Shown here one piece after another: positions 6,294-6,377 of a stretch of 10,004 nucleotides of DNA; position 1 is the stretch's first letter, and the number at the start of each line of letters is the position of its first letter. This DNA comes from a virus, in the UHGV virus genome UHGV-0134101. The stretch is one strand, 5' to 3'. The notes under the pieces were generated by a model. The model searched no databases. It was not told the DNA's origin and worked only from the letters and a program-made list of their open reading frames with translations. Made by a program: the position numbers and the translations under genes.

Positions 6294-6300
6294 AGTGTTT

Positions 6301-6377
6301 TCCGTTAACTATATTAACTACGAGTTAAGGTTATATCTTAACTGACAGTTATGTCAACTCTAATTGATAATTAACAC
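6301..6377. promoter_or_regulatory. OR-like divergent operator/promoter region (pR-like leftward, pRM-like rightward)
   Basis: Two 13-bp palindromic sites TAAC-N5-GTTA at 6315-6327 (TAACTACGAGTTA) and 6339-6351 (TAACTGACAGTTA), 24 bp centre to centre. Leftward promoter on the minus strand: -35 TTGACA (6357-6352), 16-bp spacer, -10 TATAAC (6335-6330). Rightward promoter: -35 CTGACA (6342-6347), 18-bp spacer, -10 GATAAT (6366-6371), placing the start at or near the A of the cI ATG (6378). Confidence 0.65.

Follow-up and report, generated by a model that had tools for sequence, protein, structure and literature searches.

The region between the divergent cI and cro-like genes described here is very probably the immunity switch of an Escherichia coli lambdoid prophage, laid out on the plan of phage 933W. 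The specificity of this switch appears to be new. Its operators are predicted, from their sequence, to have the 15-bp form TTAAC-N5-GTTAA, a code that is apparently undescribed; in the literature that we searched, we found no description of TTAAC-N5-GTTAA as an operator word. Three sites at OR (6314-6385) and two sites at OL (8612-8650) follow a single consensus and overlap promoter-like hexamers. The half-sites of these operators are conserved among relatives, and the sites occur together with one particular N-terminal domain (NTD) of the cI repressor, including in a locus where that domain is fused to an unrelated C-terminal domain (CTD).

Source and gene content of the window

The window, by which we mean the whole stretch of DNA that was analyzed (10 kb; 10,004 nucleotides), comes from a lambdoid prophage of E. 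coli and covers its early region. Prophages in 7 complete E. coli genomes carry positions 6000-6700 at 100% identity, and those in 2 others carry them at about 92%; together these are the 9 of 5,426 complete genomes in which the query coverage is at least 80%. By nucleotide identity, the nearest named phages of the window are phi80 and HK225.

The cro-like open reading frame and cI are divergent, with 84 bp between them (Table 1). The product of the cro-like gene matched Pfam YdaS_toxin at 1.6e-6, which is below the cut-off, and phrog_35 at 1.4e-12, and the gene has a Shine-Dalgarno (SD)-like GGA element 7 nt 5' of its own ATG. On the minus strand, 3' of cro, is a cII-type gene belonging to the phi80-type cII/YdaT family (CII-like phrog_163 at 9e-60), and the same strand of the window carries an O-type replication gene along with a DnaC-like gene. 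The plus strand has two accessory genes besides cI.

Table 1. Genes, operators, and promoter-like elements of the switch and their coordinates in the window
Feature	Coordinates	Strand	Description
cro-like gene, 81 aa	6293..6048	-	HTH of YdaS/P22-Cro type
OR1-equivalent operator TTAACTACGAGTTAA	6314..6328		Exact match; 13-mer core TAACTACGAGTTA at 6315-6327
pR-like promoter toward cro	6328..6357	-	-35 TTGACA at 6357..6352; predicted start ~6321-6323
OR2-equivalent operator TTAACTGACAGTTAT	6338..6352		Exact match; core TAACTGACAGTTA at 6339-6351
pRM-like promoter toward cI	6342..6371	+	CTGACA, 18-bp spacer, GATAAT (6366-6371)
OR3-equivalent operator TTAACACATGGTTAA	6371..6385		Exact match; core TAACACATGGTTA at 6372-6384
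cI repressor, 258 aa	6378..7154	+	Divergent HTH NTD and S24 autopeptidase CTD
OL2-equivalent operator TTAACCATTGGTTAT	8612..8626		Exact match, core 8613-8625; adjoins pL -35
pL-like promoter	8626..8654	+	TTGACT, 17-bp spacer, AATAAT; 10/12 positions (promoter scan)
OL1-equivalent operator ATAACCATTAGTTAA	8636..8650		Exact match, core 8637-8649; inside pL spacer

Operator sites at OR and OL

The pattern TAAC-N5-GTTA has exactly five matches in the window, compared with 0.06 expected from whole-window shuffles. Because both operator regions are AT-rich, with a G+C content of just 25 to 28%, we added a local dinucleotide-shuffle control. For the two AT-rich stretches, the shuffled means were 0.015 where three sites were observed and 0.004 where two were observed, and in none of the 20,000 local shuffles were the observed counts reached. 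When one mismatch was allowed, there were six matches against 2.1 expected, the sole addition being inside the O gene at 5111; this comparison carries no information.

Each of the sites has a definable position relative to the promoter-like elements. OR1 is located just 3' of the pR -10 element and overlaps the predicted pR start point. OR2, whose 13-mer starts 24 bp from that of OR1, occupies the spacer between the -35 and -10 elements of pR, and its center holds CTGACA, the -35-like hexamer of pRM. OR3 has two consensus arms and is centered on the A (6378) of the cI ATG, with its core straddling the start codon; the OR2 and OR3 centers are 33 bp apart. The OL pair, situated 2.2 kb from OR, is also spaced at 24 bp and brackets a promoter of the form TTGACT-17-AATAAT. 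A degenerate, OL3-like remnant with only one good arm can be seen at 8594-8606.

A preliminary description of this DNA had proposed a divergent cI/cro switch with TAAC-N5-GTTA operators, namely two palindromic 13-mers 24 bp apart. Every sequence element that it listed is present, displaced by one base at most, and the two 13-mers are found at 6315-6327 and 6339-6351. The reading as a divergent switch is upheld by the enrichment of the pattern, by conservation of the arms in 12 relatives, and by the co-occurrence of the sites with one NTD. The same description had reported that there was no third site, and had raised the possibility that the lambda-style logic of OR1, OR2, and OR3 differs here. 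Both statements need to be revised: there is an exact third match at OR (6372-6384) and there are two further matches at OL, making three OR and two OL sites. As for the extra half-sites that had been suggested, the sequences do exist (6306-6318 and 6323-6343), but they are either arms that were counted twice or sequences that are not conserved, and they do not constitute additional or cooperative sites. Specifically, TAAC at 6306-6309 was rejected as an auxiliary site because it changes to TAAT in the 75/02 group and to TAGC in Rahnella, and AGTTAAG-N7-CTTAACT (6323-6343) was rejected because it consists of the facing arms of two neighboring operators, OR1 and OR2.

Conservation of the switch among relatives

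To obtain relatives, we used the repressor as the query against collections of genomes and of viral contigs, which yielded many loci. We aligned the window with 12 distinct OR variants, for which the repressor NTD is 64 to 99% identical over the first 100 residues, and the alignment contained zero insertions or deletions. Variable columns accounted for 2 of 30 in the half-sites, 4 of 15 in the operator centers, 3 of 17 in the promoter hexamers lying outside of operators, and 19 of 30 in the remaining intergenic sequence. In all 12 aligned relatives, the starts of OR1, OR2, and OR3 precede the cI ATG by 63, 39, and 6 bp; across the 13 relatives checked, the corresponding distances are 62-63, 38-39, and 6 bp. 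The 24-bp spacing of the OL pair is kept in the 13 relatives checked, while the OL2 spacer varies.

The individual sites show where variation is tolerated. At OR1, variation is confined to the spacer, which reads TACGA, TACGG, or TTCGA; the arms are invariant. The arms are also invariant at OR3, where the two bases 5' of the ATG vary (AC, GA, AA, GC, or GT). Around OR2, columns 6342-6359 are invariant in the 12 aligned relatives. This includes the center of the site, CTGACAG, which is unchanged because it contains the pRM -35-like hexamer, whereas the centers of the other sites drift. A half-site matrix drawn from 41 distinct instances gave T in 82/82, A in 82/82, A in 80/82, and C in 82/82 for positions 2 through 5. 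The resulting half-site consensus is T(67%)-T-A-A-C-Y, with T or C at position 6 in 76 of 82 half-sites and a variable center.

The repressor and its association with the operators

The CTD of cI matches Pfam Peptidase_S24 at 7e-16, and cI matches the transcriptional repressor family phrog_4 at 1e-43. For the NTD, the match to Pfam HTH_3 is below threshold (15 bits vs. a cut-off of 23). A profile made from eight family members matches the NTD of P22 C2 at 9e-5 and that of the 933W/phi24B cI over residues 1-83 (hhalign, 98.7%; E = 3e-16; 35% identity). The recognition helix is at approximately E46-A55, with the sequence SEPGIWKWLN. A single-sequence AlphaFold model of the NTD has five helices at the expected places, at a pLDDT of only 63, and Foldseek searches with this pLDDT-63 model returned only weak HTH matches, of which the best was the NTD of TP901-1 CI (E = 0.14). 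On the strength of the profile matches, we conclude that cI repressors with this NTD are not HTH-less; rather, the domain is missed by Pfam.

Natural domain swaps connect this NTD to the operators. In a Rahnella locus, the NTD is shared, with the recognition-helix sequence SEPGIWKW identical, and it is fused to an unrelated S24 domain. The locus has the same cro; its three OR sites are spaced by 24 and 32, it possesses an OL pair, and the center of its OR2 is CTGAAAG, as in 933W. In all relatives, Rahnella included, the cro-like gene, the cI NTD, and the operators are inherited as a set. Among all of the loci fetched, the 18 distinct ones with the NTD motif contain four to six exact sites each. 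When we looked at 84 distinct loci that have a related CTD but another NTD, we found no site in 80 and a single site in 4. The operator sites thus associate exclusively with this cI NTD.

These observations also bear on whether the palindromes could be a product of chance in AT-rich DNA or, alternatively, sites for a host factor. The motif is itself AT-rich and lies in regions of low G+C content, as noted above. Such an origin is nonetheless extremely improbable, given that composition-matched local shuffles never reached the observed counts, that the sites track one NTD over 102 distinct loci spanning more than one genus and CTD, and that the arms are conserved while the spacers drift.

Promoters and the start of cI

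The -35 element of the pR-like promoter is invariant in the aligned relatives, and there are two options for the -10 element: TATAAC at 6335..6330, which leaves a 16-bp spacer, and TAACCT at 6333..6328, which leaves an 18-bp spacer. The preliminary description had assigned TTGACA and TATAAC to this promoter. Both hexamers are present and the -35 assignment stands, but relatives do not keep TATAAC as their -10 element. This hexamer is confined to the subgroup of the window, whereas positions 6331-6333 and 6328 are conserved in the relatives as TAAnnT. Furthermore, TATAAC was not called in a promoter consensus scan because position 6 of the hexamer is C. Since it is not conserved and does not have the final T, we retain TATAAC only as one of two options for the pR -10.

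In the other direction, CTGACA-18-GATAAT is the sole plus-strand promoter match in the cro-cI intergenic region, with agreement at 10 of 12 positions in the promoter scan. Its GATAAT, which had been noticed earlier as an opposing hexamer ending about 7 nt before the cI ATG, is at 6366-6371; it ends 7 nt before A6378, so the gap between hexamer and ATG is 6 nt. The hexamer is invariant in the 12 aligned relatives and is GATACT in the Rahnella locus. This position places the canonical +1 at A6378, which predicts a leaderless maintenance mRNA. No SD sequence is found in the 18 nt upstream of the cI ATG (CTAATTGATAATTAACAC), and runs of GGAG, GAGG, or AGGA are absent from all 13 OR variants; the earlier remark that cI has no SD thus holds for the window and for every relative. 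An in-frame TAA at 6372-6374, two codons 5' of the ATG, rules out a longer cI open reading frame. In relatives, CA or a purine is found at -1/+1. It is plausible, based on these features, that the pRM-like promoter gives rise to a leaderless cI mRNA with a predicted start at A6378.

In lambda, transcripts from pRM have the AUG at their 5' end. As in lambda, cI of the window is without an SD, and the gap between the -10 element and the ATG is 6 nt (TAGATT-TAACGT-ATG in lambda and GATAAT-TAACAC-ATG in the window).

An argument can be made that the operators are as assigned, and that the cI mRNA of the lysogen starts upstream, at a cII-dependent establishment promoter or at another start in the intergenic region, in which case the AUG would be internal and SD-less. 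The -35-like hexamer, CTGACA, is a weak one and forms part of OR2. In addition, a gene for a cII-type activator is present, so a long-leader establishment transcript must exist. Yet several observations make an upstream start of the lysogen's mRNA distinctly unlikely. GATAAT is invariant in the aligned relatives while its flanks vary, and its distance from the ATG is fixed and equal to that of lambda. The intergenic region has no second plus-strand promoter match. Finally, the placement of OR3 over the ATG is understandable if its role is to stop a polymerase that initiates there. Initiation at A6378 from the pRM-like promoter is the reading that we carry forward.

At OL, both elements of the pL-like promoter are kept in relatives, as TTGAC(T/C) and ATAATC.

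Comparison with 933W and phi24B

Our understanding of the immunity region of the Stx2 phages 933W and phi24B comes from work in the Koudelka and Friedman laboratories. The 933W operator is a rotationally symmetric 15-bp site in which positions 2 to 5 are conserved and position 6 can be T or C, with a half-site of (C/T)G(A/T)AC (PMC3317979). There are five natural sites and no OL3 in 933W (PMC3317979, PMC5977221), and its repressor does not bind OR1 and OR2 cooperatively (PMC3317979; PMC5977221; PMC4848623). In the phi24B record, OR1, OR2, OR3 (over the cI ATG), OL1, and OL2 are annotated, and the distances between centers, as read from the sequence, are 24 bp for OR1-OR2, 32 bp for OR2-OR3, and 24 bp for OL1-OL2.

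The window resembles these phages in the architecture of the sites as well as in their arrangement. The operators are symmetric over 15 bp; positions 2 to 5 are conserved, position 6 is a pyrimidine, and the center is only loosely constrained. There are three OR and two OL sites, and OL3 is absent. At OR, the center spacings are 24 and 33 bp in the window, compared with 24 and 32 bp in both phi24B and the Rahnella locus. OR2 is in the pR spacer, the -35 element of pL adjoins OL2, and OR3 is over the cI ATG, with ATGGTT falling within the site. The NTDs are homologous, with 35% identity, and K46 of the 933W repressor is retained as K51 in the repressor of the window.

What differs is the sequence that is recognized and the protein surface expected to recognize it. 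The half-site is TTAAC in the window, where position 2 has changed from G to T. In 933W, changing operator position 2 leads to a more than 6-fold loss of affinity (PMC3317979). As modeled for 933W, S41 and K42 read positions 2-3 while K46 contacts the 'AC' of positions 4-5. The repressor of the window has E46 and P47 in place of S41 and K42, which fits the G-to-T change at operator position 2. The window therefore does not carry the combination that marks homo-immunity with 933W (S41, K42, and K46 in the repressor; G at position 2 of the operator). Together, E46/P47 and the occurrence of T at position 2 in 82 of 82 half-sites point to an immunity type other than that of 933W. A further difference is that the CTD in the window is of the phi80/HK225 type.

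Proposed regulation

We propose that dimers of the 258-aa cI bind the 15-bp TTAAC-N5-GTTAA sites, and that Cro very probably binds the sites used by cI. With OR1 (on the pR start) and OR2 (in the pR spacer) occupied, pR would be turned off along with cro, cII, and the replication genes. Likewise, occupancy of OL1 in the pL spacer and OL2 at the pL -35 would turn off pL. Expression of cI would be driven by the weak CTGACA-18-GATAAT promoter through a leaderless maintenance mRNA, as in lambda. Because OR3 spans approximately -7 to +8 of pRM, it should block initiation at high repressor concentrations; by excluding RNA polymerase in this way, it would provide negative autoregulation. Induction would occur via RecA-stimulated self-cleavage, a reaction attributable to the S24 domain.

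The effect of OR2 on pRM deserves separate consideration. OR2 is centered near -33 of the predicted pRM, spans roughly -40 to -26, and overlaps the -35-like hexamer, which puts it about 9 bp nearer to the pRM start than OR2 of lambda (-42). By the rules of lambda, repressor at this position would be expected to impede pRM, not to assist it. The predicted start points of pR and pRM are about 56 bp apart, however, and so the removal of polymerase from pR may itself activate pRM. Occupancy of OR2 might then stimulate pRM either directly or by clearing polymerase from the strong pR that overlaps it.

Alternatively, the switch may have no positive autoregulation. Repressor bound to OR2 would repress pRM too, and cI would be expressed from a weak constitutive promoter under negative control through OR2 and OR3. 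This possibility is suggested by the inclusion of the pRM -35-like hexamer in OR2, which is unlike lambda. Nevertheless, the geometry is identical in 933W, where pRM is reported to be activated and then repressed at an approximately 4-fold higher concentration of repressor (PMC5977221, section 3.3; PMC4848623). Moreover, with start points about 56 bp apart, silencing the strong pR should be enough to release pRM. For these reasons, we find purely negative control unlikely. None of this reveals a new regulatory principle. The region is an ordinary lambdoid switch of the 933W type.

Comparison with lambda, phi80, and HK225

The window and lambda share the divergent arrangement of cI and cro, three OR sites, a 24-bp distance between the centers of OR1 and OR2, and a repressor with an S24 domain. 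The operators of lambda, in contrast, are 17 bp long and unrelated in sequence, and three of them are at OL. Their placement also differs. The center of OR3 is 19 bp upstream of the ATG in lambda and 0 bp in the window, while the center of OR2 is 42 bp upstream in lambda and 33 bp in the window. OR3 is found between the -35 and -10 elements of pRM in lambda and on the pRM start point in the window. These offsets indicate that the operator set is placed differently on both promoters.

The similarity to phi80 and HK225 is of another kind. It covers the C-terminal part of cI and the YdaT-type cII, at 91 to 94% nucleotide identity, whereas there is no relationship in the NTD, the start of cro, the intergenic region, or the operators. 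The sites annotated in these phages are 19 bp long, and TAAC-N5-GTTA is absent from the OR of phi80 and HK225. We rejected the two phages as a model for the operators, since the shared part is limited to the C-terminal portion of cI and to cII. Because they have the CTD in common with the window but not the operators, the immunity module of the window combines a phi80-like CTD with a different specificity.

Relation to Stx1 phages

The nearest phage records with this NTD are Shigella 75/02 Stx, POCJ13, and phiSTEC1589-Stx1c, at 70% identity (tblastn). The recognition helix SEPGIWKWLN is identical in these phages, and their five operators are at the same offsets as those of the window, with one arm of OR2 reading TAGC. 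Their pR, pRM, and pL elements match those of the window as well. They differ from the window in having other replication genes (Eru4-type), a lambda-type cII, and stx1. We found no description of the operators of these three phages in the literature searched.

In a survey of Stx-phage CI proteins from 2022, a clade linked to Eru4 (75/02-type) was described as 'lacking the HTH domain' and as having an unknown regulatory function (PMC8951638). It is likely that the 75/02 cI belongs to this HTH-less clade ('Clade III' of PMC8951638). When we compared the 75/02 cI NTD with Pfam, there were zero matches, and so the HTH-less description is probably a threshold artifact for this family.

From these comparisons, it is conceivable, though somewhat doubtful, that TTAAC-N5-GTTAA serves, as a previously undescribed operator code, a whole repressor clade with the Shigella Stx1 phages 75/02 Stx and POCJ13 among its members, and that such phages could have a low-repressor 'hair-trigger' like that of 933W. 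The basis for the second part is OR3, which has two consensus arms and is placed exactly on the predicted +1/AUG of a leaderless cI mRNA, an arrangement suggesting that the clade may run at very low levels of repressor.

Implications

Our analysis provides a concrete operator sequence that can be tested, together with a map of all sites, for a type of immunity seldom found in E. coli and shared with Stx1-converting Shigella phages. The unusual layout known from 933W recurs with another specificity in Escherichia, in one Enterobacter genome, and in one Rahnella genome. The switch also offers a second system for asking how a repressor centered near -33 could stimulate pRM. If the repressor clade of the Stx1 phages does use this operator code and run at very low repressor levels, then the induction of these Stx1 prophages and the accompanying release of toxin could become predictable, and open to manipulation, from sequence.

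The repressor and its operators

The cI repressor has a mosaic structure. Starting with the linker motif IPPESEWGTVDAWDKNTPLPDDEVEVPF (window 6650-7154), it carries a C-terminal domain of the phi80/HK225 type, which is common to many repressors with quite different HTH domains (comparison loci L008-L141). In addition, at a Rahnella locus (L053), an unrelated S24 domain follows the window's N-terminal domain. The linker seems to contain the recombination joint. The expected self-cleavage site is Cys-Gly rather than Ala-Gly (FACGDG, residues about 129-134, window 6762-6779); phi80 cI likewise has a Cys-Gly cleavage site.

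At the other end of the protein, coding sequence and operator coincide. The right arm of the predicted operator OR3 consists of cI codons 1 and 2 plus the first base of codon 3 (ATG GTT A; window 6378-6385, positions 307-314 of comparison locus L005). Because this arm is made of the first cI codons, the N-terminal Met-Val is fixed by the operator. The same is true of the Stx2 phage 933W, whose repressor begins with MVQ; those of the window's family begin with MVK. This Lys/Gln difference at codon 3 coincides with the change at operator position 2.

On the OL side, we found TAACCAACACAGA at 8594-8606, starting 19 bp ahead of OL2; the sequence has the look of a third OL site that has decayed. 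Its left arm is retained by most relatives, and the counterpart in comparison locus L064, TAACCAACGGTAA, has a single mismatch with respect to a full site. An additional TAAC at 8585-8588 creates a TAAC-N5-TAAC repeat that resembles the one at 6306-6318.

Neighboring genes

A boxA-like GCTTCTTTAACAA lies 3' of pL, at about 8713-8727. No N gene was recognisable in the long stretch downstream of pL (window 8700-9780), where two predicted ORFs overlap on opposite strands. The conserved 69-aa ORF sits between the terminator and OL, directed away from pL.

Features flanking the OL region
Feature	Position	Strand	Remarks
Promoter-like match, accessory pair's own	7178-7206		
194-aa protein gene	7271-7855		Family search: no match
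YafO-toxin-like gene	7846-8265		Overlaps 194-aa gene; Pfam 3e-16
Strong terminator of accessory pair	8264-8285		
Conserved 69-aa ORF	8294-8503	-	phrog_3975, E 7e-35; good SD
Predicted ORF	9201-9541	+	Strong SD
Predicted ORF	9281-9775	-	RefSeq: ECs_2282-family zinc-binding protein

Between cI and OL there are two accessory genes (window 7271-8290), at the place occupied by rexAB in lambda. This pair possibly constitutes a toxin-antitoxin system or an exclusion module that is expressed in the lysogen.
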